Source: Candidatus Omnitrophota bacterium
GTDB taxonomy: Bacteria > Omnitrophota > Gorgyraeia > Duberdicusellales > 4484-171
Direction: 5' to 3'
Assembly: GCA_043823745.1 (NCBI GenBank)
Contig: JBDRAN010000028.1
Coordinates: 3,116-67,115, forward strand
DNA: 64,000 nucleotides
Part shown: positions 33,447 to 57,929 of the stretch, one piece after another
Layout of the letters: every line of letters starts with the position of its first letter
Position numbering within the stretch: the first letter of the stretch is position 1
Made by a program: the position numbers and the translations under genes
The notes under the pieces: model-generated
What the model saw: only the letters and a program-made list of their open reading frames with translations
What the model was told of the DNA's origin: nothing
Database searches by the model: none

Positions 33447-33454
33447 GGAGCGTT

Positions 33455-33820
33455 ATGAAGAATATTCTAATTGTTGATGACGAGCCGGCGATGCATGAGT
33501 TGTATCGGGACATGTTTTCGTTGGCCCAAGATCGGTATGATATCGAGATCCAGTTTGATGCAGCTGAGGCGCTGGTCCGCGCGCATCAGAAAAAGTTTGA
33601 CCTTATCATTCTTGATATTATCATGGAGCCGATGGCGGGAGATTCTCTGCTTGTGTACTTAAGAAAAGACAGCCAGACTAAAGATATACCGGTCCTTATC
33701 GCCAGCGCCTTAAACCCGGCAATATTGCGAACGTTGCAGACGATCAATCACCTTACAATTATCCAGAAGCCTTTTAAGGCGAAAGACCTTTTTGAGAATC
33801 TTGATAGAATATTGAATTAA
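33455..33820 (+). CDS. Stand-alone single-domain response regulator (CheY-like REC).
   Basis: It has ILIVDDEPAMHELY...LIILDIIMEP and is 121 aa. Confidence 0.8.
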   Translation: MKNILIVDDEPAMHELYRDMFSLAQDRYDIEIQFDAAEALVRAHQKKFDLIILDIIMEPMAGDSLLVYLRKDSQTKDIPVLIASALNPAILRTLQTINHLTIIQKPFKAKDLFENLDRILN

Positions 33821-33877
33821 TGGGGAGAGATGGGCATCCGCATGCTTCGCAAGCTTAAGGCGCTCGTCGCAAGCAGG

Positions 33878-33950
33878 AAAATTACTAATGACTGAGCATA
33901 AATTACTAAATAAAAATATTTCGTAATTATAATTTAGTAATTAGTAATTT
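33878..33950. repeat. Inverted-repeat family C, copy C1 (AAATTACTAAT ... TTAGTAATTAGTAATT).
   Basis: It is visible in the sequence, and a second copy lies at 39425-39495. Confidence 0.45.
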
Positions 33951-34018
33951 GTTTGGCGCCTTGACGCTTGACACAATGCGTAATGCGTTTTAGGCTATAG
34001 GTATACAGGAGGGCCGAG

Positions 34019-34747
34019 GTGTCGTATACGATCCTTTTGGTTGATGATGATAAAGAGTTCAGGTCGGTGTTTAAAAAATACCTGGAGGGGTACCGGATTA
34101 TTGAAACCGATAGCGGCGCTGCGGCGCTTGCTATCTTAAAGAAACCCAACGATATTGATTTGGTGATACTTGATGTGGTAATGCCCGGCCTGCAGGGGAT
34201 CGATGTGTTGCGGGAAATTCGCAAGGTAAACGAAAAGTTGAGCGTTATCATGCTGACCGCATATGGTTCTAAAGATGTAGCGGTCGAGGCGCTGCGCAGC
34301 CACGCCGACGATTTTATCGAGAAGGGTATGTCCATCAGTGAGATAGAGAGGGTTATCACCAGGGTTATGGAGGCTCATGGCATTTCCGCGGGCATTCATG
34401 GCAACGGCCTCGCTGCGAAAATCGAAAAAGCAAAACGGTATGCCGAAATAAACTGTTATAAAAAATTTTCTTTACGGGATGCTGCCGAGAGCGTATGTTT
34501 GAGCCCGAAATATTTAAGCCGCGTGTTTAAGGAGTATGCAGGTACCGGATTTAGCGCGTATCGCCTGGCTATAAAGATAAAGGAAGCTCGCCGCCTTCTT
34601 GCGCATGCGACTTGTAACGTGAGTCAGATTGCCGATAAGCTAGGATATAAAAATGTAGAATCTTTTATTCGTCAGTTCAAGAAAATGACCGGTACCACCC
34701 CTTCGGTGTTCCGCAAGAGTAAAATCAAAAAAACTAAGCGCTCATGA
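34019..34747 (+). CDS. Response regulator with an AraC-type HTH output (REC + HTH_AraC).
   Basis: It has ILLVDDDKEFRSVF...LVILDVVMPG, and the C-terminus carries the AraC signature IADKLGYKNVESFIRQFKKMTG. Confidence 0.8.
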   Translation: MSYTILLVDDDKEFRSVFKKYLEGYRIIETDSGAAALAILKKPNDIDLVILDVVMPGLQGIDVLREIRKVNEKLSVIMLTAYGSKDVAVEALRSHADDFIEKGMSISEIERVITRVMEAHGISAGIHGNGLAAKIEKAKRYAEINCYKKFSLRDAAESVCLSPKYLSRVFKEYAGTGFSAYRLAIKIKEARRLLAHATCNVSQIADKLGYKNVESFIRQFKKMTGTTPSVFRKSKIKKTKRS

Positions 34748-35270
34748 CCGCGAACACAGGGACACGAACGAAAATAAAAAATCCCAAATCTCAAACTCAA
34801 AACAAATTCCAATTATCAAAACTATCCGCCGAAGGCGAGACCTCGCCAGCTATCGCTGACGGGCAATGTTCTAAACGGGATCATTTTTTGTCAGGCCCTT
34901 CCTTTAGTCGGAACAGGGAAGCCTACCCTTTAGGGTTATTGGATAATTGGAGTTTGGAACTTATTTATGTTTTTCCGCCCCTTTGGGCGAGATCTCGCCT
35001 ATATACACTAATTAATGTGGCGGAGGTGCTTGCCATTTGGAATTTTTTACACCCCTCGTCCGAGCGTATGCGGCCGCACGTCGTCGGATAACGAGCTTGT
35101 ATCCTGACGTTTTGGTGTCTACCGCCTCACGCTCCCCAAAAGCTCGCTGCTGAGTGCTTAGAGATAGTAGAAAAAAGTCAATAAAAAGTGGAAAACCCCT
35201 CTTTACCGGTTATGGGTAAGTTAGTAATATTTATATACTTAATTATAGTAGCGGATAGTGGTTACTGGAG

Positions 35271-35352
35271 AAAGTATTGAGTATCGAGTACAGAGCATTA
35301 AGTACGTAGTTCTAAAGCGCAACACTCAATACGCAATGCTCAATACGAAAGC
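35271..35352. repeat. Family A-related partial copy A4 (AGTATTGAGTATCGAGTACAGAGC ... ACTCAATACGCAATGCTCAATACG).
   Basis: It is visible in the sequence. Confidence 0.45.
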
Positions 35353-35505
35353 GGAATAGTTTGTGGCGTAAGGCTAACGTGGCGCGCAAGGCGCCATGTA
35401 TTCCAAAAAAATCCGTGGCTTGGGCTTTACGCCACCTGTCTTTATATAGAGATTCCAGAGATCAGGAAAAGATTACCTGTAATCATTTTTTTAATCGCTG
35501 TAATC

Positions 35506-35712
35506 TTGAGCAATATTCATTATACTAAAATGGTACAAGTTCAATGTAAAAAATGTGGCGAGATACGCTTTACTGCCTATCCGCAGATATCGGTATGCGT
35601 TTGTGGCGGGAGATTTAAAGCTATTGATTTCGACCGCCAGGACAAGGAATGCCCTGCGGAGAAAAAATGCCAACACTTGATTGATTCCTTAGAGTACCTA
35701 CGGGAAACGTAA
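35506..35712 (+). CDS. Putative small zinc-ribbon protein (CKKCG...CVCGG).
   Basis: It is a 68-aa ORF with two CxxC/CxC pairs. The RBS is weak, and it is the only ORF in a 1.1 kb gap. Confidence 0.3.
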   Translation: MSNIHYTKMVQVQCKKCGEIRFTAYPQISVCVCGGRFKAIDFDRQDKECPAEKKCQHLIDSLEYLRET

Positions 35713-35884
35713 CACGTAGCCAACCGCTCCCGCGAGTGCAAAAATTCGCTTTCTTTTTGACGCAAGCGTGTATACAATAGAAATATTATATGACTCATGC
35801 GTGGCCGATGATGCGGTTCTTGAGGCAATTCTTTTCCTGTAGGGAGGGGTTGCCTTTTTTTATTGATGGATATGTAATTGCGCA

Positions 35885-36262
35885 ATGAAGAAAACGATCC
35901 TCATAGTCGATGATGATCCGGCGATGCATGAAGTATATGGTGATATGTTTCGGCAATCAGACCGGTACCAGCTTGCGCGCGCCTATAGCGTCGAGGAGGC
36001 TTTGAAGGGATTGAAAACTCGGCGCATTGACCTGATACTGCTTGATATCATCATGGAACCGATACCGGGCTCCTATCTGTATCTTAAAGTAGCGCGGGAT
36101 AAAAAAATACAAAACGAGAAAATACCTATCATCGTCGTCAGCGTTCTTAAAGAACATGAGCTTGGCTCTTTGGGAAAACTCGACAACCTTATATTTTTTG
36201 CCAAGCCCTTTAAGAAAGAGGCGTTGATGGGGAAGATTGAGGAATTGTTGGGAAGCGATTAG
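35885..36262 (+). CDS. Stand-alone single-domain response regulator, paralogous to the one at 33455.
   Basis: It has ILIVDDDPAMHEVYGDMF...LILLDIIMEP. Confidence 0.8.
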   Translation: MKKTILIVDDDPAMHEVYGDMFRQSDRYQLARAYSVEEALKGLKTRRIDLILLDIIMEPIPGSYLYLKVARDKKIQNEKIPIIVVSVLKEHELGSLGKLDNLIFFAKPFKKEALMGKIEELLGSD

Positions 36263-36264
36263 CA

Positions 36265-36368
36265 AAAAGTATTGAGTATCGAGTATAGAGCATCGAGCAT
36301 TGAACAGGGAATAAAAAATGAGTATTTAATAAACTCAATACCCAATACTCACTGCACAATACGTAATA
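36265..36368. repeat. Repeat family A, copy A2.
   Basis: The sequence reads AAAAGTATTGAGTATCGAGTATAGAGCATCGAGC...AAACTCAATACCCAATACTCACTGCACAATACG. Confidence 0.6.
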
Positions 36369-36379
36369 AGGGGGGGAAT

Positions 36380-36745
36380 ATGCTTAAGAAAAAAATATTA
36401 GTTGTTGATGATGAACGTGATTTTCTTAATTTAATACGCATACGGCTTGAGTCAAGCAAATACGAAGTTATTACTGCTTGCGACGGCGTCGATGCGCTCT
36501 TAAAATTTGATGAATGCCCGCCGGACGCAGTCATGCTCGATATTCTCATGCCCAACATGGACGGCCTGGAAGTTTTAAAGAAAATAAGAGCCAAGGACAA
36601 AAATATCCCTATCTTCATCATTACCGCGTTTTCTAATGAGGAGCGACTGAAGCTTGCCAAGGAATTAAATGTTAACGGTTTCATGGATAAAACCGCCGAT
36701 TTAAAAACCGAAATAGAGCATGTGGCGGAAGCGCTCGGGAAATAG
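36380..36745 (+). CDS. Stand-alone single-domain response regulator.
   Basis: It has ILVVDDERDFLNLI...AVMLDILMPNMDG. Its stop codon TAG is the first TAG of the family-B repeat. Confidence 0.8.
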   Translation: MLKKKILVVDDERDFLNLIRIRLESSKYEVITACDGVDALLKFDECPPDAVMLDILMPNMDGLEVLKKIRAKDKNIPIFIITAFSNEERLKLAKELNVNGFMDKTADLKTEIEHVAEALGK

Positions 36746-36774
36746 CGTAGAGCGGATAGCGTAGAGCGTAGAGG
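36742..36774. repeat. Family B left-arm copy, B2 (ATAGCGTAGAGCGGATAGCGTAGAGCGTAGAGG).
   Basis: It is visible in the sequence. Confidence 0.5.
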
Positions 36775-36811
36775 AAGAAAAATATACAGGAATAGCGCAA
36801 AAGGAAAGAAA

Positions 36812-37162
36812 ATGGTAACAAAGAGCTTCAAAGATCTGATAGTTTGGCAGAAAGCATATGCTTTAACTATAGAGATTTATAAGGTGGCTAGTCATTTCCC
36901 TGCTGTTGAGTTGTATGGCTTGCGGCAACAGATGTGTCGTGCCGCAATATCCATACCGTCCAATATCGCTGAAGGATATGGCCGTTCGTATCGTAAGGAA
37001 TATTCACAATTTCTCTCTATAGCCTATGGGTCCTTGTGCGAGCTGGAAACGCAGTATTTATTAGCACTTGAATTTGGTTATCTCAAAAAAACCGAAACGA
37101 TTGAACTTTTAATAAAAGAAGTGGGAAGTATGCTTTATTGTATGATAAATCCCAGAAAATAG
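36812..37162 (+). CDS. Four-helix-bundle protein of the TIGR02436 / 23S rRNA intervening-sequence protein type.
   Basis: It has WQKAYALTIEIYKVASHFP...ISIPSNIAEGYGR...ELETQ, and the RBS is AAAGGAAAG. Confidence 0.75.
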   Translation: MVTKSFKDLIVWQKAYALTIEIYKVASHFPAVELYGLRQQMCRAAISIPSNIAEGYGRSYRKEYSQFLSIAYGSLCELETQYLLALEFGYLKKTETIELLIKEVGSMLYCMINPRK

Positions 37163-37165
37163 GAG

Positions 37166-37252
37166 AAAGCGGAGAGCGTAGAGAAAGAAGGAGCGTAGAA
37201 TTTTACATTATTTATTTTCCCCTCTACGCTATCCGCTCCACGCTCTACGCTA
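37166..37252. repeat. Family B, copy B3: a complete hairpin element directly downstream of the four-helix-bundle gene.
   Basis: The left arm is GCGGAGAGCGTAGAGAAAGAAGGAGCGTAGAA. The loop is TTTTACATTATTTATTTTC. The right arm is CCCTCTACGCTATCCGCTCCACGCTCTACGCTAG. Confidence 0.6.
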
Positions 37253-37268
37253 GAAAAAAGGAGGATCA

Positions 37269-37658
37269 ATGGATGCCAAGAAAAAAGTTTTGATTATTGA
37301 CGATGAAGAAAATTTTACCAAAATCATCAAACTGAACCTTGAGGCAACGGGAAAATACGATGTCTTTGTCGAGAACGATTCAATCCGGGGCTTGAGCAGT
37401 GCAAAAAAAAATATGCCTGACGTGATACTACTCGATATTCTTATGCCTAAGATTGACGGGTTTGAGCTTTTGCGTGCACTTAAGAAAGATATGCCTACAA
37501 TCGCGATCCCGGTAATTATGCTTACCGCGGTAATGGCCGATGAAGCAAAGGCTATGGCCGCCCGGTTGTATGATGAGTCGTATATGGTGAAGCCGGTTGC
37601 CGCCGAGGTGCTTGAGAAAGAAATAGAGAGAGTGTTGGCGCGCCACAGTGGTAATTAG
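37269..37658 (+). CDS. Stand-alone single-domain response regulator.
   Basis: It has VLIIDDEENFTKII...VILLDILMPKIDG. Confidence 0.8.
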   Translation: MDAKKKVLIIDDEENFTKIIKLNLEATGKYDVFVENDSIRGLSSAKKNMPDVILLDILMPKIDGFELLRALKKDMPTIAIPVIMLTAVMADEAKAMAARLYDESYMVKPVAAEVLEKEIERVLARHSGN

Positions 37659-37843
37659 GTCCTTTCATCGTCTATTCTTCGTAGTCCGTTCCCTTCGGGG
37701 ATCCCCTGACGGGGAGGCTTCGCACGGCTCCGCACTCGTTAGTCGTCCGTGACGGAATACGAACGAGTGCATAGCCTGCCGCAGGGCACGGGATACGGAA
37801 GACGGTCGACGAGATAATTATTTATTAAAGAAAGGAGCCTGCT

Positions 37844-39349
37844 ATGTTTGATTCCCAAAGTCTAAGCGCGCAACCCGAAATAATACATGTTTTACTTATT
37901 GAAGATAATCCCGGAGACGTGCGGTTGTTCAAAGAGTTGTTATCGGAGATTCCCGAGACCCCGTTTACCGTAGAATGCGTCAGCCGGCTCGGCGAGGCTT
38001 TAGCGCGCCTTGAAAAAAGGGGTATTGACGTCATTGTCGTTGATCTCGGCCTTCCTGATAGCAAGGGTATTGACACATTTAGGAGTATTTATACTACCGC
38101 GCCTCGCGTGCCGATCGTGGTTGTTACGGGAATGCATGGTCAAGCTTTGAGCGTTTTGGCTCAGGGCGCCCAGGATTATCTTATCAAAGGAAACGTCGAC
38201 GCTGCCATTATATCGCGGACATTGCGATATGCGATTGAGCGTAACAAGCTTAAAACCGCGTATGAGGATTTAGTGAATACGATCACGCATGAGTTGCGCA
38301 TCCCCCTTGGTATTGTACGGGAGGGGGTTTCCCAGATTTGCGATGGCCTGCACGGGGAGATATCCGAAAAAAGCAAAGAATTTCTGGTGCTGGCAATCCA
38401 CAATATCGACAGGCTCAAGCGGCTTATCGATAATCTTTTAGGTGTCGCCAAGCTCGATGCGGGAAAGGTGAAGTTACATAAGTCCATTTTTGATATAACC
38501 GAGCTGGCGCGCGAAATGAGCGCTATTTTTTCAACTCGTGTACAGGGGCGTGACGTGGAGTTGCGTTGTCGTTTTCCCGGCAGCGTCATTAACGTGTATG
38601 CCGATCGGGATAAGATCGTGGAAGTGTTTACCAACCTGATCGGAAACGCGCTTAAGTTTACCGAACGGGGCCTCATCGAGATTGTGCTTCTTGAGAAAGA
38701 GGATTATGTCGCCTGCGCGGTGCGTGATACCGGTTACGGTATTCCTGCGGAACACCTGCCGCATATCTTCGATAAATTTCAGCAATTCTCGCGTAAAGTA
38801 GCTTTCGGGGAAAAAGGTACCGGCCTTGGCCTTGCGATCGTGAAGGGTATTCTTGAGTTGCACGATGAAGCAATCGACGTAGAAAGCGCGATTGGAGCCG
38901 GCACAACGTTTACGTTTACGCTCCATAAGCATCTGGCGCAGCCGCCCTGCAAGGAGCACATTGATGCGTGCATTGCGCAGGCTGGGCTCAAAAACGTGTC
39001 TTTTTCTTTGATCGCGGTCTCGGGCATTAATCTGGAGACATTAAAACACGTTGCGACGCCGGAATCGGCAACGCAAATCATGACGCAGGTACACGCAATA
39101 TTTAAAAGTAGCCTGCGTCGTGCCGAGGATAGCGTTTTTGATTTAACGAGTGAGATACTCGTGCTTTTGATTGACTGTGACAAAGAGGGTGTTGGGGTGG
39201 TTAAGTCCCGGCTTGCCCAACAATTATTCAATTATCTGGCGAGCAACGGATTTTCTGATAGAATATATCTTAAATTTGGCTGTGTCACCTATCCCGATGA
39301 TGCGACCAGCCGGGAAGGGTTACTCGCTGCGGTAATATCGCAACTGTAG
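37844..39349 (+). CDS. Hybrid histidine kinase: REC, HisKA, HATPase_c, and a C-terminal degenerate GGDEF-like domain.
   Basis: The REC domain has VLLIEDNPGDVRLF..VIVVDLGLPD. The H-box is ITHELRIPLG and the G-box is GTGLGLAIVKGI. In the C-terminal roughly 150 aa the GG(D/E)EF motif is replaced by DLTSE, while the RAED (RxxD) I-site is kept. Confidence 0.8.
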   Translation: MFDSQSLSAQPEIIHVLLIEDNPGDVRLFKELLSEIPETPFTVECVSRLGEALARLEKRGIDVIVVDLGLPDSKGIDTFRSIYTTAPRVPIVVVTGMHGQALSVLAQGAQDYLIKGNVDAAIISRTLRYAIERNKLKTAYEDLVNTITHELRIPLGIVREGVSQICDGLHGEISEKSKEFLVLAIHNIDRLKRLIDNLLGVAKLDAGKVKLHKSIFDITELAREMSAIFSTRVQGRDVELRCRFPGSVINVYADRDKIVEVFTNLIGNALKFTERGLIEIVLLEKEDYVACAVRDTGYGIPAEHLPHIFDKFQQFSRKVAFGEKGTGLGLAIVKGILELHDEAIDVESAIGAGTTFTFTLHKHLAQPPCKEHIDACIAQAGLKNVSFSLIAVSGINLETLKHVATPESATQIMTQVHAIFKSSLRRAEDSVFDLTSEILVLLIDCDKEGVGVVKSRLAQQLFNYLASNGFSDRIYLKFGCVTYPDDATSREGLLAAVISQL

Positions 39350-39424
39350 TAACGCAGGGTCGTAGGGTTCAATACGTGACAATGTGCCAAGGCATCAAAG
39401 TGTCAAAGCATCAACGCGTCAGAG

Positions 39425-39495
39425 TAAATTACTAATTGCTAAATTCTAATGACGAACCATTTCCTTTTAGTAATTCGTGCTTAGTAATTAGTGAT
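39425..39495. repeat. Inverted-repeat family C, copy C2.
   Basis: It has AAATTACTAATTGCTAAATTC...TTTTAGTAATTCGTGCTTAGTAATTAGTGATT. Confidence 0.45.
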
Positions 39496-39562
39496 TTTTC
39501 TGCTCTACGTTAGACTTGATACCCTGACACTTTTCCATTGATGTTTTTCAACCAATACCTGA

Positions 39563-40552
39563 ATGGTTAATTTCTTCTACTCCATAAGCGGCTATATCTT
39601 TTTTTCCATCTTTCTTGTTTCTGTATTCTGCCTTTTATGTATCACCCTTTTTATAATTCTGAGACAGCGTAAAAAATTACAAAGTCAGTCGTTGCGCCTT
39701 TTAGCGGTGACCGAAGAAGAGCGTTTTACGCTCGAGCGGGCGCGTCATTTTGTTTACCGCCTCGATACGCGGGGGATTGCGCGCTATGTTTCTGCCTCGA
39801 TTGAAAGGATTACCGGCCGCCTGCCACAGGAGTGGCGTGCGCACTACGCTACCTTTCTTACTGATAATATCTGTAATCAGAAAGCGATCGAATATATTGA
39901 GAAGGCGCTGCGCGCCGGCGAGAAGCCCCCGGTTTTTGAGCTGGAGATGTTTCATAAAAACGGCAGGCGTATTTATCTTGAGATGAGCCTGCAGCCGACG
40001 CGTGAAGTCGGGAACGTAACCGGCATTGCGGGTATCGCGCGGGATATCAGCGAGCGCAAAGAAATGGAGAGGGAGCTGGCGAAAGCTCACGAACTTAGCC
40101 TTTCAATCATCAAAGCGCTTCCTTTCGGGATGGATATTGTAGATTATAACGGTAATATCCTGTATGCGAGCGAAAAGTTTATTGCAGCATTTGGGCATGA
40201 TATTATCGGTAAGAAGTGCTGGATTCTTTATCGGGACGATAAAAAGCAGTGCACCAGCTGTCCCCTGATAAAAGGTGTGGCGGTCGGACAGGTCCTGGTT
40301 TCAGAGGTGGGCGGTGTTTTGGACGGAAAAATATTTGAGATAACGCACGTCGGTCTTGTTTTTAACGGGGCACCCGCGGTACTTGAATTTTTTAACGATA
40401 TTACCGAGCACAAGCGTATTCAAGATGATCTTAATACAAAGGTCCAGGCGCTCCAGCGTTTCCAGAGCGTGACGATTGACCGTGAGTTAAAAATGAAAGA
40501 GCTTAAAGCGCGGATTGCCGAGCTTGAGGAGAAACTAGAAAAATATACATAG
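39563..40552 (+). CDS. Membrane-anchored tandem-PAS protein with a C-terminal coiled coil and no output domain.
   Basis: It has an N-terminal TM helix, two PAS-like segments and a final heptad-rich tail. Its stop TAG lies inside a family-B repeat. Confidence 0.65.
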   Translation: MVNFFYSISGYIFFSIFLVSVFCLLCITLFIILRQRKKLQSQSLRLLAVTEEERFTLERARHFVYRLDTRGIARYVSASIERITGRLPQEWRAHYATFLTDNICNQKAIEYIEKALRAGEKPPVFELEMFHKNGRRIYLEMSLQPTREVGNVTGIAGIARDISERKEMERELAKAHELSLSIIKALPFGMDIVDYNGNILYASEKFIAAFGHDIIGKKCWILYRDDKKQCTSCPLIKGVAVGQVLVSEVGGVLDGKIFEITHVGLVFNGAPAVLEFFNDITEHKRIQDDLNTKVQALQRFQSVTIDRELKMKELKARIAELEEKLEKYT

Positions 40553-40722
40553 CGTAGAGTCCCCTTTGGGGGAGGCTTCGCACCGTATAGCGTAGAGCGT
40601 AGAGGAAGAGAGGGTAAGTGTGAGAGGCGTAGTTTTAGAAATTTTTCTTTATTTTCTACTCTACGCTAAACGCTCCACGCTCTACGCTAAATCGTAGCAA
40701 ACGTTCTACGCTCCACGCTAGG
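40550..40722. repeat. Family B, copy B4: a long hairpin element that includes the 34-mer GTCCCCTTTGGGGGAGGCTTCGCACCGTATAGCG.
   Basis: The left arm is TAGCGTAGAGCGTAGAGGAAG. The loop is AT-rich. The right arm is ACTCTACGCTAAACGCTCCACGCTCTACGCTAAATCGTAGCAAACGTTCTACGCTCCACGCTA. Confidence 0.6.
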
Positions 40723-40739
40723 ATATGGATAACTAAATT

Positions 40740-42818
40740 ATGCTTAACCTAAAATTCGGAATCAGGCAGAAAGTAATCGTGATGATTTTTATTTCTGTTT
40801 TTGCCGCGGTTATCCTGACGGCAGGATTTTATTACTTTCTTGGGTACCGGTTCCAGGAGAAGGTTATGAGCGCGCAGTATTACCGTAGCGCCCAGATTCT
40901 TTCGCAAGCGTTAGGGAAAATGTTTAACGACCAGATGCAGTTTATACGAGTACAGGTGGCTACGTACCCATGGAACGACGACTTGGTTCGGGTCAATGCG
41001 CAGTATCAGGGTCGCGCGCAGGAATCGATTGTTGCCGAGCTTATGGAGAAAGATCAACATTGGATAGCGGATCAAGGCCAGGATGGAATCATCCGGCAAT
41101 ATTTGCAAAATCCCGCAAGCGAAAAGCTTGTGCGCCTGGTAGCTGCCGACCCTAAAATTGCGGAAATCTTTATTACCGATGCGTACGGTGGCCTAGTGGC
41201 TGCCTCGGGAAGAACTTCAGATTTTTATCAGGCGGACGAACAGTGGTGGCAGGACGGCTATGCCGGAGGAGCCGGGCGCGATTGCGTCGGTGACGTCGAG
41301 TATGACGCGTCCGCGAAGACCTTGAGTATTCCGTTTATAACGCCGGTGCGCGATGAAAAGGGGAACGTCTCAGGGGTTTGCAAGGCAGTGCTTAACCTTG
41401 AGGCGTTCCTTGAACCCCTCTCAAGCCTTTCGATCGGAAAAACCGGTCACGCCGCGTTGCTCAACGCAAACGGGCAGATCATTTTTCATCAGGGTATTAC
41501 CCCGTTAAGCCGGTTATTTTCCGACCGGAAAGATTTCAGCGTTTTCCTTGCGGAGCAACAAAAGTTCTCAATAGCGCCCTTGTCTCACGAGCAGAACGAA
41601 CGAAGGTTTTTCGTTAGCGTGCCTTTTATCTCGTCGTTATTCGCGGACAAACAAATGCGGTGGTATGTAGTGATTGAGCAGGCCGCGTCTGAGGTATTTG
41701 CACCGCTTGTTGAGCTGAACATCAAGCTTATGGCTGTTGCCGGGGTTACGCTTATTCTGATGCTGCCTTTGGGGTTTTTATTGGGGGGTGTTTTTTCCCG
41801 GCCTATCCTCGCTCTCCATAAGGCGATCACTAAAATTACCGAAGGTGTATGGGATTATGCGGTTGAGATTAAAAGCGGAGACGAGGTTGAACAATTTGCC
41901 GAAGCGTTTAAGAAAATGATTTTAACGACACGTAATAAACAGCGGGAGCTGATTGCCGCAAAAAATGAGCTTGAAGCGTTGGCAAAAAGCCTTGAAGATA
42001 AGGTCCGGGAGCGTACGGGGGAGCTTGAGCGTGTTAATAAGGCGAGCCTTAATATTCTTGAAGATCTGACCGAAGCGAAAAGAAATTTAAGCAAGTATTC
42101 CAAGGATCTTAAGGAAGCGATCATTGTTAAGTCAGACTTTACGTCTATGGTTTCTCATGAGTTACGCACGCCCCTGACCGCGATCAAAGAAGGTATTTCG
42201 ATCGTGCTTGACGGCACAACCGGGCAGCTCAACAAAGACCAGGAGAACTTTCTTTCGATAGCCAAAAGCAATGTTGACCGCCTCACGCGGCTCATTAACG
42301 ACATTCTTGATTTTCAGAAGCTCGAGGCGGGTAAATTAGAGTTTACGATGAAGGTGTATGACATAACCGAAGTTCTTTGGGAAGTTCAGAATACGATGGA
42401 ATCGGCGATTAAGGCGAAAAAGCTTACCTTTGCCTCTGAATTCCCCGGGAATCTGCCTGAATTGACCTTCGATCGCGATAGAATCATTCAGGTGATCATG
42501 AACCTTATTACCAACGCATGTAAGTTTACCGAACGCGGCGGCATTATCTTGCGCGCAGAACTGTTGGGTGAGTATGTTCGGGTATGCGTCGAGGATACCG
42601 GTTGTGGTGTTTCCGAGGGGGATATCCCTAAGCTTTTTCAGAAATTTACTCAACTGGAGACCGGTGTCAGCAGAAAAGTCGGCGGCACCGGGCTTGGCCT
42701 TGCGATCTCAAAACAAATTATCGACGCGCACGGCGGAAAAATTTGGCTTGAATCGGTAGCCGGCAAAGGCTCGAAGTTTTATTTTACCTTACCGATTAAG
42801 AAAGCGGATAGCGTATAG
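40740..42818 (+). CDS. Sensor histidine kinase with a periplasmic Cache-like domain, then HAMP, HisKA and HATPase_c.
   Basis: It has two TM helices flanking a periplasmic domain of about 280 aa. The H-box is VSHELRTPLTAIKEG and the G-box is GTGLGLAISKQII. It ends in KADSV, which is encoded by the repeat. Confidence 0.85.
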   Translation: MLNLKFGIRQKVIVMIFISVFAAVILTAGFYYFLGYRFQEKVMSAQYYRSAQILSQALGKMFNDQMQFIRVQVATYPWNDDLVRVNAQYQGRAQESIVAELMEKDQHWIADQGQDGIIRQYLQNPASEKLVRLVAADPKIAEIFITDAYGGLVAASGRTSDFYQADEQWWQDGYAGGAGRDCVGDVEYDASAKTLSIPFITPVRDEKGNVSGVCKAVLNLEAFLEPLSSLSIGKTGHAALLNANGQIIFHQGITPLSRLFSDRKDFSVFLAEQQKFSIAPLSHEQNERRFFVSVPFISSLFADKQMRWYVVIEQAASEVFAPLVELNIKLMAVAGVTLILMLPLGFLLGGVFSRPILALHKAITKITEGVWDYAVEIKSGDEVEQFAEAFKKMILTTRNKQRELIAAKNELEALAKSLEDKVRERTGELERVNKASLNILEDLTEAKRNLSKYSKDLKEAIIVKSDFTSMVSHELRTPLTAIKEGISIVLDGTTGQLNKDQENFLSIAKSNVDRLTRLINDILDFQKLEAGKLEFTMKVYDITEVLWEVQNTMESAIKAKKLTFASEFPGNLPELTFDRDRIIQVIMNLITNACKFTERGGIILRAELLGEYVRVCVEDTGCGVSEGDIPKLFQKFTQLETGVSRKVGGTGLGLAISKQIIDAHGGKIWLESVAGKGSKFYFTLPIKKADSV

Positions 42819-42834
42819 CGATTAGCGGATAGCA

Positions 42835-42928
42835 GGAAGTATTGGGTATAGAGTACAGAGTATTGAGTAGAGAATGAAAAATAAGGATTTATAAACTCAA
42901 TACCCAATACTCGTACACAATACGAACG
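42835..42928. repeat. Repeat family A, copy A3.
   Basis: It has GGAAGTATTGGGTATAGAGTACAGAGTATTGAGTAGAG...AAACTCAATACCCAATACTCGTACACAATACG. Confidence 0.6.
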
Positions 42929-42984
42929 CAAAAAACATCGTGATAATTGAGAGAAAGAGTGTATAATAACTCAATATTACAAGA

Positions 42985-43102
42985 AAGCGTTTAGCGGTTA
43001 GTCCCCTTTGGGGGAGGCTTCGCACCGTATAGCGAGAGAAAAAAGGAGTATAGAATTTCACATTCTTTATTTTCCGCCTCTATGCTACCCACTCTACGCT
43101 AG
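42985..43102. repeat. Family B, copy B5, which shares the 34-mer with B4.
   Basis: It has GCGTTTAGCGGTTAGTCCCCTTTGGGGGAGGCTTCGCACCGTATAGCG...CCTCTATGCTACCCACTCTACGCTAG. Confidence 0.6.
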
Positions 43103-43122
43103 ATCCCGGATGATGATAGTAA

Positions 43123-43539
43123 ATGCTTAACAATATGCCAAAATTAACTATATTGCTGGCTGATGATGAAAAAGATTTCCTGACTATGTTGGCTATGCGC
43201 CTTAAGGCGTGGGGGTATGAGGTCATCGTAGCGGAGGAAGGAGCAGAGGCAGTTAGGTTGGTACGCGATAAAAAACCCGATGTCGTTATCATTGACTATA
43301 TGATGCCTGAAATGGACGGTGTTGCGGCCTTGCGGGAGATTCGAAAAACCAATGCGGATGTGCCCGTTATTATGCTTACCGCGTATCCCGATAAACATTC
43401 TATCAAGGGGGCTGAAACGTTGGATGTTCTCGCGTATATACCTAAAGTGAGCGCTCATTCCGACACACAAGCGCTCCTGCGATCAGCGCTGCGTATGGCA
43501 GAGAGGGCGATCGGCAAAGGGAAAGCGGATAGCGTTTAG
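43123..43539 (+). CDS. Stand-alone single-domain response regulator.
   Basis: It has ILLADDEKDFLTML...VVIIDYMMPEMDG. It ends in KADSV plus a TAG supplied by a family-B repeat. Confidence 0.8.
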   Translation: MLNNMPKLTILLADDEKDFLTMLAMRLKAWGYEVIVAEEGAEAVRLVRDKKPDVVIIDYMMPEMDGVAALREIRKTNADVPVIMLTAYPDKHSIKGAETLDVLAYIPKVSAHSDTQALLRSALRMAERAIGKGKADSV

Positions 43540-43633
43540 CGGATAGCGCAGAGCGTAGAGGAAACGGAGAGTTTAGAAAATACTGTTCTTTTTATTCTCC
43601 ACTCTACGCTAAACGCTCCACGCTCTACGCTAG
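43524..43633. repeat. Family B, copy B6, which shares a 31-mer, ACTCTACGCTAAACGCTCCACGCTCTACGCTA, with B4.
   Basis: It has AAAGCGGATAGCGTTTAGCGGATAGCGCAGAGCGTAGAGGAAACGG...loop...ACTCTACGCTAAACGCTCCACGCTCTACGCTAG. Confidence 0.6.
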
Positions 43634-43641
43634 AATTAACA

Positions 43642-44967
43642 TTGAGGAAAATGGACGAAACAATCAGCCCCGCACAATTAGGTTCTATCAGAAGCGAAGA
43701 GGTAAGAAGGTTGTTTGAAGACATCGGCGGCCGCACCAAGCCGGTTCTGCAAAAACATGTTCTTGATCTATTGTCCGCCTATGGTGCTGGCAAAGAAGTG
43801 GCGGCTACGTTTGAGTTTAAGCGCTGCCTTGATATCCTTGTTGAAAAAATAGCGAATCTTCTTTCTGTTGAGATCGTTTCCCTGATGCTTAAGGAAAAAG
43901 GGACTGATGAGCTGGTGATGGAGATTTCCCGCGGTATAGAAAATGACGCGGCAAAAAGCGCCAAAGTAAAGATTGGCGATGGCATTGCCGGCTGGATCGC
44001 CTCAAGCGGCGAAGCGCTGCTGGTTGAGGATATAACGAAAGATGAGCGTTTCAGTTCTTGCGGCGGAAAGTATTATACTAATTCGTTATTGAGCGTGCCG
44101 CTTACCGTGAACAACGAAGTTATCGGTGTTATCAACGTTAACAATAAAACCTCAAAAACGGTTTTCTCAAGCGACGACCTCGACATATTAAGGATCGTCG
44201 CTGATCTTGCCGCGGTGGCTATTGAGAACGCTCGTTTTCGCAGGGATGCGGCCGCGCGCGAGCAGTTTAAATCAGATTTTATTTCCAACGTCTCGCATGA
44301 GCTGCGTACCCCGCTTACGGCTATCAAGGAAGCGGTGGGCATGACGTTAGACGGTATTACCGGAGAGGTGAACGATGACCAGAAGCGTTTCTTGCGCATG
44401 GCGCAGCAGAATATTGATCGTCTAAGCCGCCTGATCAGCGAGATGCTTGCGCTTGCCGCGTGTGAGTCAAGGCACACGGTACGCCGGCAGCTCTTTGACG
44501 TTGTCGAAGTCGTCAAGGATGCCGCTTTGTTTCTAAAGCCGCTGGCAAAAGAGCGAATGATTACATTCCTGGAGATGCTTCCCTCCAGTGTCATCGGAGT
44601 TTGGGCTGACCGGGATAAGATCAGCCAGGTTTTTATTAATCTTATCGGCAATGCGATCAAATATAATCGTGAACACGGACGGGTGGAGGTAGCGGTCGAG
44701 GACTCCGGCGATTTTGTTAAGATTGTAGTCTCCGATAACGGCATCGGTATCCCGGCGCAGGATCTGGAGCGTATTTTTGAGCGTTTTTACCGGGTTCAGC
44801 AGCGTGCCGAGCATAAGAACCGGGAAGGTTCCGGATTGGGCCTTGCCATTACCAAAGAAATTATCGACGCTTCAGGCGGAGAGATTTTTGTCAGCTCCCA
44901 GGTCGGGCGCGGCAGCGCGTTCACGGTAGCATTACCTAAAGATATGAGGAAGAGCGGCCATGGATAA
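43642..44967 (+). CDS. GAF-domain sensor histidine kinase (GAF, HisKA, HATPase_c).
   Basis: It has a GAF segment (IAGWIASSGEALLVEDI...VPLTVNNEVIGVINV). The H-box is VSHELRTPLTAIKEA and the G-box is GSGLGLAITKEII. Confidence 0.85.
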   Translation: MRKMDETISPAQLGSIRSEEVRRLFEDIGGRTKPVLQKHVLDLLSAYGAGKEVAATFEFKRCLDILVEKIANLLSVEIVSLMLKEKGTDELVMEISRGIENDAAKSAKVKIGDGIAGWIASSGEALLVEDITKDERFSSCGGKYYTNSLLSVPLTVNNEVIGVINVNNKTSKTVFSSDDLDILRIVADLAAVAIENARFRRDAAAREQFKSDFISNVSHELRTPLTAIKEAVGMTLDGITGEVNDDQKRFLRMAQQNIDRLSRLISEMLALAACESRHTVRRQLFDVVEVVKDAALFLKPLAKERMITFLEMLPSSVIGVWADRDKISQVFINLIGNAIKYNREHGRVEVAVEDSGDFVKIVVSDNGIGIPAQDLERIFERFYRVQQRAEHKNREGSGLGLAITKEIIDASGGEIFVSSQVGRGSAFTVALPKDMRKSGHG

Positions 44968-45334
44968 AAAAAGAATTTTGCTGGTTGATGATGAAAAAGA
45001 CCTTTCGGATACCGTACGCTTTCGTCTCCAGCATGCCGGTTACGATGTTTTGTGCGCGTATGACGGCTTAGAGGCAATTGAGTGCGCGCGTAAAGAAAAA
45101 CCCGACCTTATTATTCTTGATTTAATGCTGCCTAAGCTCGACGGCTATAAAGTGTGCCGCATGCTTAAGTTTGACGAGCAGTATAAAAAAATTCCGATAA
45201 TCCTTTTTAGCGCCAAAGCGCAAGAATCCGATAAGCAGCTGGGTAAGGAGGTAGGCGCCGATTCCTATATTACAAAACCATTTGAGCCCAGCGTACTTCT
45301 TGATAAGATTAAAGAACTGCTCGCATTACAATAG
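44960..45334 (+). CDS. Stand-alone single-domain response regulator (PilH/CheY-like) directly upstream of pilB.
   Basis: It has ILLVDDEKDLSDTV...LIILDLMLPKLDG. It overlaps the kinase stop by 8 nt. Confidence 0.8.
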   Translation: MDKKRILLVDDEKDLSDTVRFRLQHAGYDVLCAYDGLEAIECARKEKPDLIILDLMLPKLDGYKVCRMLKFDEQYKKIPIILFSAKAQESDKQLGKEVGADSYITKPFEPSVLLDKIKELLALQ

Positions 45335-45508
45335 GTGCCCGTCCGCGCGTGGCTATTGCAGCGTCTGTATAGAACGTTTTCCTCTGTTTTTGGTTTTGGT
45401 ACTATACCGTACGTATTACGGTTTTTGTCCGTATAACGGCAGCCTTTCGTCTGGTGTGCCGTATGATGTTCGTTCCCGGTGATGCCGGCGGCAGGAATCT
45501 GTGGAGGA

Positions 45509-47167
45509 ATGATGTGGCAGAAAGTCGATATTATTCAGTTATTGCTGAAACAGGGGATTATCAGCGCTGAGCAGCTTGCCAAAGCAAACGATGAAGTAAA
45601 GCGTACGGGCCTCTCGCTTGAGCGGGCACTGGAGAAGCTCGGGTTTATAAAAGAAGAAGATCTCACGAAAACAAAAGCTAATGCCCTGGGCCTTCCGTAT
45701 ATCAATTTAGAGAATTATATCGTGGATGCTGAGCTTATGAAGGTTATCCCCGAACCGGTCGCGCGCAAATACAATGCGGTCCCGCTCTTTAAGATCGGCG
45801 ATACGCTTACGGTCGGCATGATTAATCCGCAGGATATCGTAGCGCGGGATACGCTGCGCGCGCTCGCGAAGATCGAAACGATCGAGGCGGTGCTTGTATC
45901 CGAGCGGGGAATGCATACCGTTTTTGATTCTTATTATGGAGTTGTCGGTTCGATCGACGAGATCGTAAAGCTTATCGATAACGAAAAAAATCTGGGTGCC
46001 GGCGAGACGGCCGAGGCGCCCATCATTAAACTTGTTAACATGATGGTGCTGCAGGCGGTGAAGGAACGGGCTTCGGATATTCATGTAGAACCCGAAGAAG
46101 CAAGCGTGCGGATACGGTACCGTGTTGACGGCCTTCTGCATGAGATAAGCCTCCTGCCCAAGAAACTTCAAAATTCGGTTATTTCGCGCATTAAGATACT
46201 TTCGAATATGGATATCGCCGAGAGCAGAAAGCCGCAAGACGGGAGGATCCGTTTAGTCATGGAAGGGAAAGATCTCGACATACGAGTTTCTACGTTCCCG
46301 GTGGTTCATGGCGAGAACGTGGTTATGCGTCTGCTTAATAAATCGTCGGTTGTGTTGGGTCTTGAGCAGGTAGGATTCCTTGAGCGCGATGGCGCGGCTT
46401 TCGCTAAAATCATCCGCAGGCCTAACGGTATCGTGCTGATCGCAGGGCCGACCGGAAGCGGTAAAACGACTACGTTATACGCCGCATTGACGACGATCAG
46501 CACCATGGAAAAAAATATCATTACCATAGAGGATCCGGTAGAGTATGAATTACCGCTCATCCGGCAGACACAGGTTAACGTAAAGGCGGGGTTAACGTTT
46601 GCCAACGGCTTACGTAGTATCCTGCGCCAAGACCCCGATATTATTATGGTAGGAGAAATTCGCGATAAAGAAACCGCTGAGATCGCGATACAGGCCGCGT
46701 TGACCGGCCATTTGGTTTTCTCAACATTGCATACCAATGACGCTCCCAGCGCCGTAACGCGCTTGATCGATATGGGAGTCGAGCCATTTCTTATTTCAAG
46801 CTCTCTGGTCGGAATCCTGGCGCAGCGGTTGGTTCGCGTTGTGTGCCCGAAGTGTAAAGAAAAGCGCGTTGTGGCGGATGATGCGCTGCGGTCTTTAGGG
46901 ATCGCGCGCGATACGGAGCTCTATTACGGTAAAGGGTGTAGTTTTTGTAAGAATACCGGTTTTTTGGGGCGGACCGGCATTTTTGAACTATGTATTATCA
47001 CCGAAGAGGTCAAAAAATTAATCGACAGGAAAGCTTCGGCTGACGAGATAAAGGGAAAAGCTATGGAGCAGGGAATGCAAACGTTATGTGTTGACGGCGC
47101 CGTTAAGATAACGCGGGGCATCACAACGCCGGAAGAAGTCCTGCAGGTTGTTGAGACAAGCGGATGA
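45509..47167 (+). CDS. pilB: Type IV pilus assembly ATPase PilB (GspE family), with an N-terminal T2SSE_N domain.
   Basis: It has Walker A GPTGSGKTT and the Asp box, plus the His box and a tetracysteine CPKC...CSFC. An RBS GGAGGA precedes the ATG at 45509. Confidence 0.85.
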   Translation: MMWQKVDIIQLLLKQGIISAEQLAKANDEVKRTGLSLERALEKLGFIKEEDLTKTKANALGLPYINLENYIVDAELMKVIPEPVARKYNAVPLFKIGDTLTVGMINPQDIVARDTLRALAKIETIEAVLVSERGMHTVFDSYYGVVGSIDEIVKLIDNEKNLGAGETAEAPIIKLVNMMVLQAVKERASDIHVEPEEASVRIRYRVDGLLHEISLLPKKLQNSVISRIKILSNMDIAESRKPQDGRIRLVMEGKDLDIRVSTFPVVHGENVVMRLLNKSSVVLGLEQVGFLERDGAAFAKIIRRPNGIVLIAGPTGSGKTTTLYAALTTISTMEKNIITIEDPVEYELPLIRQTQVNVKAGLTFANGLRSILRQDPDIIMVGEIRDKETAEIAIQAALTGHLVFSTLHTNDAPSAVTRLIDMGVEPFLISSSLVGILAQRLVRVVCPKCKEKRVVADDALRSLGIARDTELYYGKGCSFCKNTGFLGRTGIFELCIITEEVKKLIDRKASADEIKGKAMEQGMQTLCVDGAVKITRGITTPEEVLQVVETSG

Positions 47168-47171
47168 CGGT

Positions 47172-48386
47172 ATGATTTCATTTCATTATCGTGCGCGGGA
47201 TAAATTTGGGAAGGTTGCGCGGGGAGTTATTACCGCTTCCTCGGAAGAGGACGTCGTAACGCAACTGAAGCAGGCCGGATATACCCCTGTCATTATCCTA
47301 AAAATCAAGCCGGCGGGCAGTTTCCAGAAGTTCATCAAAAGGTTCTCCGGAGTGCGTTTCGTTGATCTCAACATTTTTACGCGTCAGCTTTTTACGTTGC
47401 AGCGCGCGGGCATACCTCTTTTAAGCGCACTTCTTGCGCTCCAGGAACAGGCGACGAACGTGGTCTTAAAAGACGTTATCAGCCGCGTGGTCAAGGATAT
47501 TGAGGCTGGTACGAGTTTGTCGGGAGCCTTTGCGGCTCACCCTAAGGTTTTTAGCATTTTGTATATCAATATGATTAAAGCAGGTGAGGCCTCCGGAAGG
47601 CTCGAGGAGATATTGGAGCGCCTGGCTTTTTTAGGCGAACACGAAGAGAAAGTTCGCCAGCGTATAAGAGCGGCCATACGATACCCGATTATGGTCGTTG
47701 TCGCTATTTGCATCGCGTTTCTGACCCTTATTACCTTTGTCATTCCGCGATTCGCCAGTATTTATAGTCAATTTACCGTCGAGCTTCCGCTTCCGACCCG
47801 TATCCTTTTATTGATCAATCATATTGTCGTCTATTACTGGTGGCTGGTAGTATCGTGTGGAATCGCGGTTATTGTGTTTTTTTGGAGATTTTTCAAAACC
47901 AAAAAAGGGCGTTTGTGGCGGGATGATCTTATTCTCAAAATTCCTATCTTCGGCCCGCTTTTGCTTAAAATTATTCTTTCTCGTTTTGCGCGTATTACCG
48001 GGATCCTGTTACGCAGCGGCGTCAGACTTCTTGAAATTCTTGAGCTTACGCAGGAGGGCGTAGGCAATGTAGTCGTCGCGCGGGTTATTGACAATGTTCA
48101 TGATAGCGTTAACGCGGGGCGCGGGATGTCAGAGCCGATCCGGATCAGCGGAATGTTTCCCGCCGTCGTTGTCCAGATGATTACCGTTGGCGAAAATAGC
48201 GGTAAGCTCGACGAACTCTTATTATATATTTCCGACTACTATGATTCCGAGGTCGATTATATCATTGATAATCTTGTTTCATTGATCGAACCGATACTGG
48301 TTATTTTTTTAGGGTGCGCCGTGCTCTTTATGGCGCTGGGCATATTCTTGCCGATGTGGAATCTGATGAGCTTGTTTAAGCAGTAG
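47172..48386 (+). CDS. pilC: Type IV pilus inner-membrane platform protein PilC (GspF family).
   Basis: It has two GspF-type repeats and about 3-4 TM helices. Confidence 0.8.
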   Translation: MISFHYRARDKFGKVARGVITASSEEDVVTQLKQAGYTPVIILKIKPAGSFQKFIKRFSGVRFVDLNIFTRQLFTLQRAGIPLLSALLALQEQATNVVLKDVISRVVKDIEAGTSLSGAFAAHPKVFSILYINMIKAGEASGRLEEILERLAFLGEHEEKVRQRIRAAIRYPIMVVVAICIAFLTLITFVIPRFASIYSQFTVELPLPTRILLLINHIVVYYWWLVVSCGIAVIVFFWRFFKTKKGRLWRDDLILKIPIFGPLLLKIILSRFARITGILLRSGVRLLEILELTQEGVGNVVVARVIDNVHDSVNAGRGMSEPIRISGMFPAVVVQMITVGENSGKLDELLLYISDYYDSEVDYIIDNLVSLIEPILVIFLGCAVLFMALGIFLPMWNLMSLFKQ

Positions 48387-51327: not shown

Positions 51328-51567
51328 ATGATGCTATTTTTGATTTTTTCTGGTATAATTGCGTTGGTATTCGGGATATTATTTTTATGCGCTCCGCGCA
51401 CGCTGCGCGCGTTAAGCGAAAAGACGAACAGGGCGATCCTTCTTTTGGATGAGAAATTTTTCCGTTTGCGGATCGGTATCGGCGTATCTTTAGTACTATC
51501 CTCGGTGCTTGTGTTATTTGTAGCGTATTATCTGTTTAAGAAATACGGAGTAACGATTGCAGTCTGA
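51328..51567 (+). CDS. Hypothetical small 2-TM membrane protein.
   Basis: It is an internal start (MMLFLIFSG) of the ORF at 51277, and the region is hydrophobic. Confidence 0.3.
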   Translation: MMLFLIFSGIIALVFGILFLCAPRTLRALSEKTNRAILLLDEKFFRLRIGIGVSLVLSSVLVLFVAYYLFKKYGVTIAV

Positions 51568-51592
51568 GAACCCGCAGGGAGTAATTTCCTTA

Positions 51593-57665: not shown

Positions 57666-57929
57666 GAGGGTTCTGCCTGGTTTGGCCAATGGTTTTCGTG
57701 ATAGTGTTGACAAGTTTCCCGGGTATGCTAAACTATAATACTATTATTAGGAATTGTAGAGGAGGGTTCGGAAATGCAGATGCATTTTCGGAGGTTATGG
57801 TGATGGTCGGGCCGCCATCGTGCATAGCGCTATGCATGGTGACGGCTTTTTGTTTCGAAACCCGTTACCGCACGGTACGTACGTAAAAAGTTTATGCGAT
57901 ATAATGATGTGATAGGGAGTGTTTCGTCT

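Follow-up and report, generated by a model that had tools for sequence, protein, structure and literature searches.

A truncated, degenerate GGDEF-like tail fused to a histidine kinase of Candidatus Omnitrophota as a possible c-di-GMP receptor

To our knowledge only a few histidine kinases, namely SgmT, CckA and ShkA, read the second messenger cyclic di-GMP (c-di-GMP) directly, with a different site used in each case. In Caulobacter, c-di-GMP reportedly acts on CckA through its CA domain. ShkA of the same organism is controlled directly by c-di-GMP through a pseudo-receiver domain (PMC6969517, PMC7010744), and in Myxococcus xanthus the degenerate GGDEF domain of SgmT binds c-di-GMP via R763xxD766 (PMC3509222). 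Here we analyze a kinase encoded in a 64,000-nucleotide stretch of a Candidatus Omnitrophota bacterium (GenBank assembly GCA_043823745.1, contig JBDRAN010000028.1, positions 3,116 to 67,115 of the forward strand; hereafter the window). In this protein a receiver (REC) domain and a histidine kinase core are followed by a GGDEF-like tail that has lost its active site (A-site) and kept residues corresponding to those of the inhibitory site (I-site).

An earlier note, made from the DNA alone, had placed an open reading frame (ORF) at 37844-39349 and read it as a REC-histidine-kinase core followed by a GGDEF-like fold. The ORF list gave the same frame on the plus strand, with 501 amino acids (aa), and all the strings quoted in the note (FSLIAVSGINLETLKHV, ILVLLIDCD, YLKFGCVTYPDDA, RAED and DLTSE) were found in the translation. 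Pfam returned REC, HisKA and HATPase_c in that order, as the note had it, REC being the sole predicted sensor. The GGDEF-like fold also held, in a C-terminal tail of 139 aa, by structure model, Foldseek and profiles. Taken alone, the tail matched the GGDEF domain of a GAF-containing diguanylate cyclase from Geobacter (6d9m) over 86 aligned residues with E=1.6e-4 (phmmer against the PDB). A profile of 50 family tails matched 42 solved GGDEF domains in the PDB (best 1.8e-17) and was aligned by hhalign with the PleD cyclase domain at a probability of 96.4% (E=1.1e-9); the PleD sequence used had all 13 published landmark residues at their published numbers. The AlphaFold (AF2) model of the tail had a pLDDT of 89.8 and a pTM of 0.82, and the top ~48 structures found with it by Foldseek in the PDB were all GGDEF domains (TMq 0.66-0.78, probability 1.00). 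A check against PF00990 gave a divided result: 45 of 50 diverse family tails scanned singly matched it (best 1.6e-17), but for the query tail Pfam showed no GGDEF match even at E<=10, so that the check named in the earlier note, an alignment to PF00990, read strictly goes against the note for this sequence. NCBIfam likewise gave no match for this tail. The query and P0001, which are 70% identical, belong to the members that have diverged furthest within the family. As a refutation of GGDEF ancestry, the absent Pfam and NCBIfam matches were overruled by the agreement of single-sequence PDB, profile and fold evidence. We regard the homology as secure, and on sequence and model we assign the tail as a divergent GGDEF-derived domain, because the PDB match, the family profiles, the hhalign alignment to PleD and the fold evidence agree.

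No GG(D/E)EF motif is present in the query tail. Its place is taken by L434-I438 (LTSEI) in the 6d9m and PDB-profile alignments and by TS-gap-EI in the hhalign alignment to PleD; the loss of the motif had been noticed before, with the replacement given as DLTSE, one residue off. The degeneration goes beyond the motif to the metal, base and phosphate residues. In the hhalign alignment, the PleD metal ligand D327 is replaced by I395, the base-recognition residues N335 and D344 by K401 and T410, and G368-G369-E370 by T435-S436-gap, and the protein ends near PleD 437, so that the phosphate-binding K442 and R446 are absent. The tail is thus without the C-terminal helix/strand that carries these two residues in PleD, and it is also without the N-terminal DxLTGLxNR helix. 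Among the 120 closest homologs, none of the ~95 tails has GG[DE]EF, the motif occurs anywhere in only one of 138 further cluster representatives, and the five GGDEF-equivalent columns are only 29-55% conserved in these 138. Judged from sequence, catalysis by the tail is excluded with high confidence, because the equivalents of the GGDEF motif, D327, N335, D344, K442 and R446 are all lost; the catalytic death proposed in the earlier note is borne out. A weak or unusual nucleotidyl-cyclase activity might be read into E437, which falls opposite the fourth position of GGEEF and is shared by about half of the family members. Against this stand the absence of both glycines and of all the other catalytic and substrate residues just named, and the finding that substitutions at the D/E positions alone inactivate WspR (cited in PMC3509222). 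We rejected residual cyclase activity on the complete loss of catalytic residues and find it hardly credible.

Conservation in the tail was read from two samples. One comprised the 99 tails of the first search, the other 138 independent sequences, each representing a cluster at 50% identity. R425 was conserved in 84% and 90%, R426 in 62% and 66%, D429 in 88% and 94%, and R456 in 94% and 99% of these samples, respectively. In both, these four are the most conserved polar positions of the tail, beside a YP(D/E)(D/E) motif (P484 100%, Y/F483 ~97%, D/E at 485-486 >90% in the family) whose role is probably structural. By hhalign, R425, D429 and R456 map onto R359, D362 and R390 of PleD, the three primary I-site residues, and R456 aligns with the aeRir Arg of 6d9m. 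The functional I-site residues of SgmT, R763, D766 and R794, occupy the same three positions (PMC3509222). A single RxxD in 139 aa is unremarkable by itself (we estimate ~0.3 expected); R425/R426, D429 and R456 are more than chance, because in both samples they rank with the best-conserved columns of the tail. RAED had been described as an RxxD at canonical spacing. The literal RxxD (R426 to D429) is present, but its spacing is not canonical: four residues (SVFD) separate D429 from L434, so that D429 lies 4 and not 5 residues before the GG equivalent and the strict RxxD-x5-GG rule does not hold. In the homology alignments it is R425 that stands opposite the canonical Arg, so that the motif becomes R425-x3-D429; one residue is inserted in it, and the hairpin compensates by lacking one. 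The combination typical of SgmT/PopA-type receptors, namely a degenerate A-site, RxxD and an R390-type Arg, is found here with R426-A-E-D429 and R456.

The query does not stand alone. Of the 120 closest kinases in the full-length search, ~95 end in a comparable tail of ~140 aa. Relatives were gathered by this search and by an exhaustive profile search, and a word-indexed homolog search with the tail alone or the tail profile returned no relatives. Among cluster representatives (50% identity), the tail profile retrieved 212 at E<=1e-30, and the family thus has at least 212 clusters. Relaxing the threshold to E<=1e-10 gave 10,016 representatives, and E<=1e-3 gave 137,836, a set that amounts to the GGDEF superfamily at large. 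The kinase G2 box lies upstream of the tail domain in 126 of the 138 top representatives, and across the 138 the median distance from the end of the domain to the C-terminus is 3 residues. Different members have different N-terminal parts (REC, PAS, Cache, HAMP, GAF), and some add a C-terminal REC. The named sources are overwhelmingly Candidatus Omnitrophota, with single examples from Aureabacteria and Acidobacteria. These kinases carry generic database names such as 'ATP-binding protein', and our literature search found no paper describing such a family. When related loci were searched with the full-length protein, mostly the REC-kinase part was matched, in unrelated phyla. One relative, P0002, is a partial sequence of 336 residues, all of them identical to the query; it comes from a Candidatus Omnitrophica metagenome-assembled genome (GCA_018827245.1, contig JAHJZK010000317.1) and its locus has the gene order of the window. 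Two proteins from the exhaustive profile search contain repeats. In P0121 (851 aa, Ca. Omnitrophota) the complete tail module occurs twice, both times with LRRKAD, and a full kinase core forms part of the visible C-terminal unit. In P0142 (1274 aa) seven weak GGDEF-like stretches follow one another in tandem, and one has an intact GGEEF.

The remainder of the protein is intact at its key positions. The REC domain has the acidic pocket E20/D21, the phospho-acceptor D67, T95 and K115, with D67 and K115 invariant among 25 orthologs. The phospho-accepting H149 of HisKA is also invariant among orthologs, and the CA boxes are complete (N box N264/N268, G1 D295xGxG, F309, G2 G325xGxG). Overall, the key residues of kinase and REC are invariant or nearly so, and judged by these residues both appear competent. 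In the full-length AlphaFold model (pLDDT 83, pTM 0.54), the placement of the domains relative to each other is not confident. Within it, a single continuous helix (aa 120-166) runs from REC into the DHp helix bearing H149, and in the models the last strand of CA is joined to the first helix of the tail by a three-residue linker (363-365). Three antisense ORFs (142-166 aa) lie inside the kinase gene on the minus strand (window 38176-39231). As the plus-strand coding region is well supported, we rejected them as genes and take them most likely for shadow ORFs. The positions of all features discussed are given in Table 1.

Table 1. Features of the kinase gene and its neighborhood in window coordinates
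Feature	Position	Strand	Basis
Whole gene, REC-HisKA-HATPase_c-degenerate GGDEF	37844..39349	+	501 aa; ORF list, Pfam
REC domain, aa 16-121	37889..38206	+	PF00072 E=1.5e-15
HisKA/DHp domain, aa 141-207	38264..38464	+	PF00512 E=8.8e-8
HATPase_c (CA) domain, aa 254-362	38603..38929	+	PF02518 E=5.6e-26
Truncated, degenerate GGDEF-like domain, aa 363-501	38930..39346	+	PDB phmmer, family profile, AF2, Foldseek, hhalign
I-site-like loop L424-R425-R426-A427-E428-D429	39113..39130	+	translation, alignments, conservation
Hairpin L434-T435-S436-E437-I438 in place of GG(D/E)EF	39143..39157	+	translation, alignments
R456, equivalent of PleD R390 / SgmT R794, on helix 447-467	39209..39211	+	translation, alignments
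Y483-P484-D485-D486 motif, inherited from canonical GGDEF domains	39290..39301	+	translation, conservation
Stand-alone receiver, 186 bp upstream of kinase	37269..37658	+	PF00072 E=6.7e-19
Stand-alone receiver, 145 bp upstream of pilB	44960..45334	+	PF00072 E=7.4e-28
PilB/GspE-type ATPase (T2SSE + N-domain) and PilC/GspF (T2SSF)	45479..48386	+	Pfam

We give somewhat better than an even chance to the following reading, which draws on sequence and on analogy. The protein would be a soluble kinase with two inputs, in which the tail is an I-site-type, c-di-GMP-binding pseudo-cyclase, and its output would go to stand-alone receivers. The main argument for a ligand site is that the triad is selectively retained while the remaining functional surface drifts. 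The first input would be phosphorylation of D67 by another kinase of the gene cluster described below, passed along the continuous REC-DHp helix to the helix of H149. The second would be a nucleotide, most likely a c-di-GMP dimer, at the surface site of the pseudo-cyclase formed by R425/R426, D429 and R456. By analogy with I-site cross-linking of the PleD type, the bound dimer might tie the tails of both kinase subunits to each other, or hold one tail to the CA/DHp core, and such tying would change the mobility of CA and with it the kinase/phosphatase balance, and/or the localization of the kinase. Output would pass to stand-alone receivers, with a REC of the 44960-45334 type as the conserved partner, and in the window genome it would possibly pass onward to the adjacent type IV pilus machinery. 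We infer all three of ligand identity, effect on kinase activity and pilus output.

Besides the absent Pfam match of the query tail, several observations weigh against this reading, and they are considered here with the alternatives on which they bear. On the side of the kinase, the earlier note had c-di-GMP levels act on the phosphorelay through the tail, a proposal that finds no direct support in SgmT: there c-di-GMP altered the localization of the kinase, and neither its autophosphorylation nor its phosphotransfer in vitro (PMC3509222). The full-length model of the Omnitrophota kinase shows no confident tail-to-core arrangement (pTM 0.54, junction pLDDT 66), and a comparison of tail-bearing with tail-less kinase cores gave only modest uncharged differences and no conserved charged residue as a secondary ligand contact. 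These points favor an alternative in which the tail does bind c-di-GMP but the ligand sets only the localization or the partners of the kinase, with no direct allostery, as in SgmT and PopA; SgmT, the sole characterized kinase with a degenerate GGDEF receptor, behaves in this way (PMC3509222). The architecture argues otherwise, as the tail is joined to CA by three residues and stands at the extreme C-terminus in ~90% of members, whereas SgmT has an intervening receiver. That this tight coupling is kept across many sensor architectures would suggest mechanical communication with CA. We consider control of localization or partners alone rather unlikely, though worth keeping in view.

On the side of the ligand, no canonical GGDEF, EAL, HD-GYP or PilZ gene was found by Pfam in the 64-kb window, and no c-di-GMP riboswitch by Rfam. 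The N-domain of the PilB/GspE ATPase (45479-47167, plus strand) matches Pfam MshEN with E=6.5e-16. The c-di-GMP motif of MshEN is a tandem 24-residue RLGxx(L/V/I)(L/V/I)xxG(L/V/I)(L/V/I)xxxxLxxxLxxQ (PMC5013675), and neither its strict nor its relaxed form was found in the PilB N-domain, while a control sequence matched both. This N-domain is probably a non-binding T2SSE_N variant, and with the binding motif absent it was rejected as independent evidence of c-di-GMP. Because it holds no turnover genes, PilZ, riboswitch or MshEN motif, the window offers no independent support for c-di-GMP signaling. The I-site-like loop, between helix 406-423 and strand 430-433, moreover exceeds that of PleD or TM1788 by one residue, and the hairpin after it is one residue shorter than canonical in the alignments; we know of no characterized I-site with such a geometry.

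The non-canonical geometry of the loop and the lack of c-di-GMP machinery in the window can also be read as signs of a ligand-independent pseudo-enzyme module, which would serve dimerization or the positioning of CA and keep the triad for structural or inter-domain salt bridges. GGDEF domains naturally dimerize, and other degenerate GGDEF domains, those of FimX and CsrD, are said not to bind c-di-GMP. On the other hand, the three polar residues with the highest conservation are precisely the equivalents of the three I-site residues of PleD, the remaining surface including the former active site drifts freely, and the triad residues tend toward joint loss. The full triad of the R425/D429/R456 type is kept in 208 of 243 family domains, and in these domains loss was correlated for R426/D429 (odds ratio 23, p=3e-8), R425/D429 (odds ratio 7, p=1e-4) and R425/R456 (odds ratio 7.6, p=0.002), in statistics that ignore kinship and include one subclade that lost R and D together, a further point against the receptor reading. 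Nor does the fold seem to depend on these residues. Christen et al. in 2006 reportedly found RxxD in only about half of canonical GGDEF domains, so that the I-site residues are dispensable for the fold, as they are also said to be in the many cyclases without RxxD. A tail that binds no ligand at all is, in our judgment, unlikely.

A third alternative keeps the ligand site and changes the ligand, in that the remodeled RRxxD and R456 would bind another nucleotide such as 3'3'-cGAMP, c-di-AMP, (p)ppGpp or GTP. The loop has an extra residue and often a second Arg when compared with canonical I-sites, the window encodes a c-di-AMP synthase (DAC, 57894-59402) but no diguanylate cyclase, and the PleD structure 9g85, with c-di-GMP and ppGpp, indicates that GGDEF proteins can bind other guanine nucleotides. 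Yet the Arg/Asp/Arg triad is the classic guanine-recognizing arrangement of the I-site, and sensing of GTP at the A-site is made less likely by the full degradation of the former GTP site. In addition, one ortholog, P0086, adjoins a gene with GGDEF and HD_5/HD (HD-GYP-type) domains, 33 bp after the kinase (L087, 7611-9158). This is the only direct association with c-di-GMP turnover among nine ortholog contexts. We hold a ligand other than c-di-GMP to be improbable, and c-di-GMP remains the ligand in the reading that we favor.

The kinase gene lies in a 15-kb two-component cluster (30486-45334), all on the plus strand, with four kinases, a PAS protein and seven receiver-containing genes besides the target, namely six stand-alone receivers and one REC-AraC regulator. 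The kinases and the PAS gene encode a REC-5xPAS histidine kinase (986 aa), a dCache-HAMP kinase, a GAF kinase, the target kinase and a membrane PAS protein. The cluster is unusually dense and runs straight into a pilus operon. In nine ortholog contexts, the constant neighbor of the kinase is a stand-alone receiver; in most cases its gene comes next downstream, and it often overlaps the kinase stop codon. A REC gene is also found directly upstream of the kinase in the orthologs P0003, P0029, P0013 and P0094, and one gene further up in P0012. In the window, the receiver at 37269-37658 is the nearest candidate phospho-partner of the kinase. The downstream receivers of the orthologs are most similar to the REC at 44960-45334 (BLASTP, 41-51% identity, 90-132 bits). 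At every ortholog locus this REC outscored all other window RECs, and the receiver gene that it matched best there was always the first or second one to follow the kinase. In the window it overlaps by 8 nt the stop codon of the GAF kinase at 43642-44967. A scan for promoters and terminators around the target kinase gene gave nothing better than shuffled sequence.

A type IV pilus-like operon extends from 45479 to ~53756 with genes for PilB/GspE and PilC/GspF, then pilins, PilM and PilO, the PilB/PilC genes lying ~6 kb downstream of the kinase. The earlier note had connected the kinase with these pilus genes through its phosphorelay, and this link is supported in part: PilB/PilC genes recur near the kinase in the lineage of P0083 and P0094, and a T2SSE fragment lies near ortholog P0012, but six other ortholog contexts have no pilus genes. 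The position of a receiver of the conserved type directly before pilB lends some support to a pilus link beyond mere proximity, and we infer the link on this ground.

Further observations concern genes around the kinase. A gene of the PF05635 '23S rRNA intervening sequence protein' family (36812-37162, plus strand, E=2.3e-36) stands amid the array of receiver genes, with no rRNA nearby. Between the REC-AraC gene and the next receiver, ~1.1 kb (34744-35885) contain only a weak ORF of 115 aa and no Rfam match at the gathering threshold. In the pilus operon, the PilM-like ORF at 51557-53182 (plus strand) has 541 aa, far more than the PilM profile region (aa 24-355), and a cut ORF at the end of the P0094 locus, recorded as 504 aa, matches both PilM_2 and PilN. 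The sequences suggest a PilM-PilN fusion in the lineage of P0094 and the window. The c-di-AMP synthase gene at 57894-59402 (plus strand) encodes 502 aa with a CdaA N-terminal membrane region, a DAC domain and a YbbR-like domain, and looks like a CdaA-CdaR fusion. It is preceded, at a distance of 74 bp, by an nhaA-I riboswitch (RF03057, 57764-57820, plus strand, E=2.6e-8, 55.8 bits against a gathering threshold of 37), so that a riboswitch class responsive to cations is associated here with the synthase of a second messenger instead of a transporter.

A broader proposal can be made only tentatively and strikes us as doubtful, namely that the GGDEF-derived module of ~140 aa, with an I-site only and with an expanded RRxxD...R site, defines a previously unrecognized class of second-messenger-gated kinases that control type IV pili via receivers. 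If it were true, such a module would be welded to the CA domain of hundreds of kinases with REC, PAS, Cache, HAMP and GAF sensors, mainly in Omnitrophota, and a dinucleotide, c-di-GMP or another, would act directly as the switch for the kinase signal sent to networks of stand-alone receivers. This would be a general and portable way to place two-component signaling under second-messenger control. Signaling in Omnitrophota is unstudied, and pili matter for the host-attached lifestyle proposed for this phylum. If c-di-GMP binds to the tail, the I-site would tolerate an expansion by one residue, and if it also alters kinase output, a modular and widespread link between second messengers and two-component systems would exist in an uncultivated phylum. 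If the tail does not bind, it would be another pseudo-enzyme domain.

Of the described systems, SgmT and the I-site receptors of the PopA type come closest in function, and the kinase resembles SgmT in several respects. Both are histidine kinases with a GGDEF domain whose A-site is dead (GGGVF in SgmT, LTSEI here), both lack the K442/R446 equivalents, and both keep the Arg and Asp of the I-site with the R390-type Arg (R763, D766 and R794 in SgmT; R425/R426, D429 and R456 here). Both are cytoplasmic and both are linked to biology related to type IV pili. They differ in domain order, which is GAF-HK-REC-GGDEF in SgmT (HK, histidine kinase) and REC-HK-GGDEF here, with the tail fused directly to CA and no GAF. 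The GGDEF domain here is truncated at both ends (139 aa), with one residue more in the loop and one less in the hairpin. The partner of SgmT is the DNA-binding regulator DigR, whereas the candidate partners here are stand-alone receivers, and SgmT homologs have been reported from only six myxobacteria, whereas the present tail family is found mainly in Omnitrophota. Going by these differences in architecture and partners, the Omnitrophota kinase is not an ortholog of SgmT.

PopA of Caulobacter shares the degenerate A-site and retained I-site of a cyclase domain turned into a c-di-GMP receptor (PMC3509222, PMC12448109), but it is a REC-REC-GGDEF response regulator without a kinase, with a full-length GGDEF domain and canonical RxxD spacing. 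Cyclases of the PleD/WspR type have the homologous fold, and the equivalents of R359, D362 and R390 are kept here. It is from them that the mechanism of domain immobilization by an intercalated c-di-GMP dimer is borrowed. They are active enzymes, whereas in the present tail the catalytic and substrate residues are all lost and the domain is shortened. CckA and ShkA share the outcome proposed here, a histidine kinase switched directly by c-di-GMP, but their binding sites are unrelated and neither has a GGDEF-derived module. The degenerate GGDEF domain as a c-di-GMP receptor on a kinase is thus known from SgmT and receptors of the PopA type, and what is new here is a truncated module with an I-site only, fused directly to CA in a sizeable family centered on Omnitrophota.

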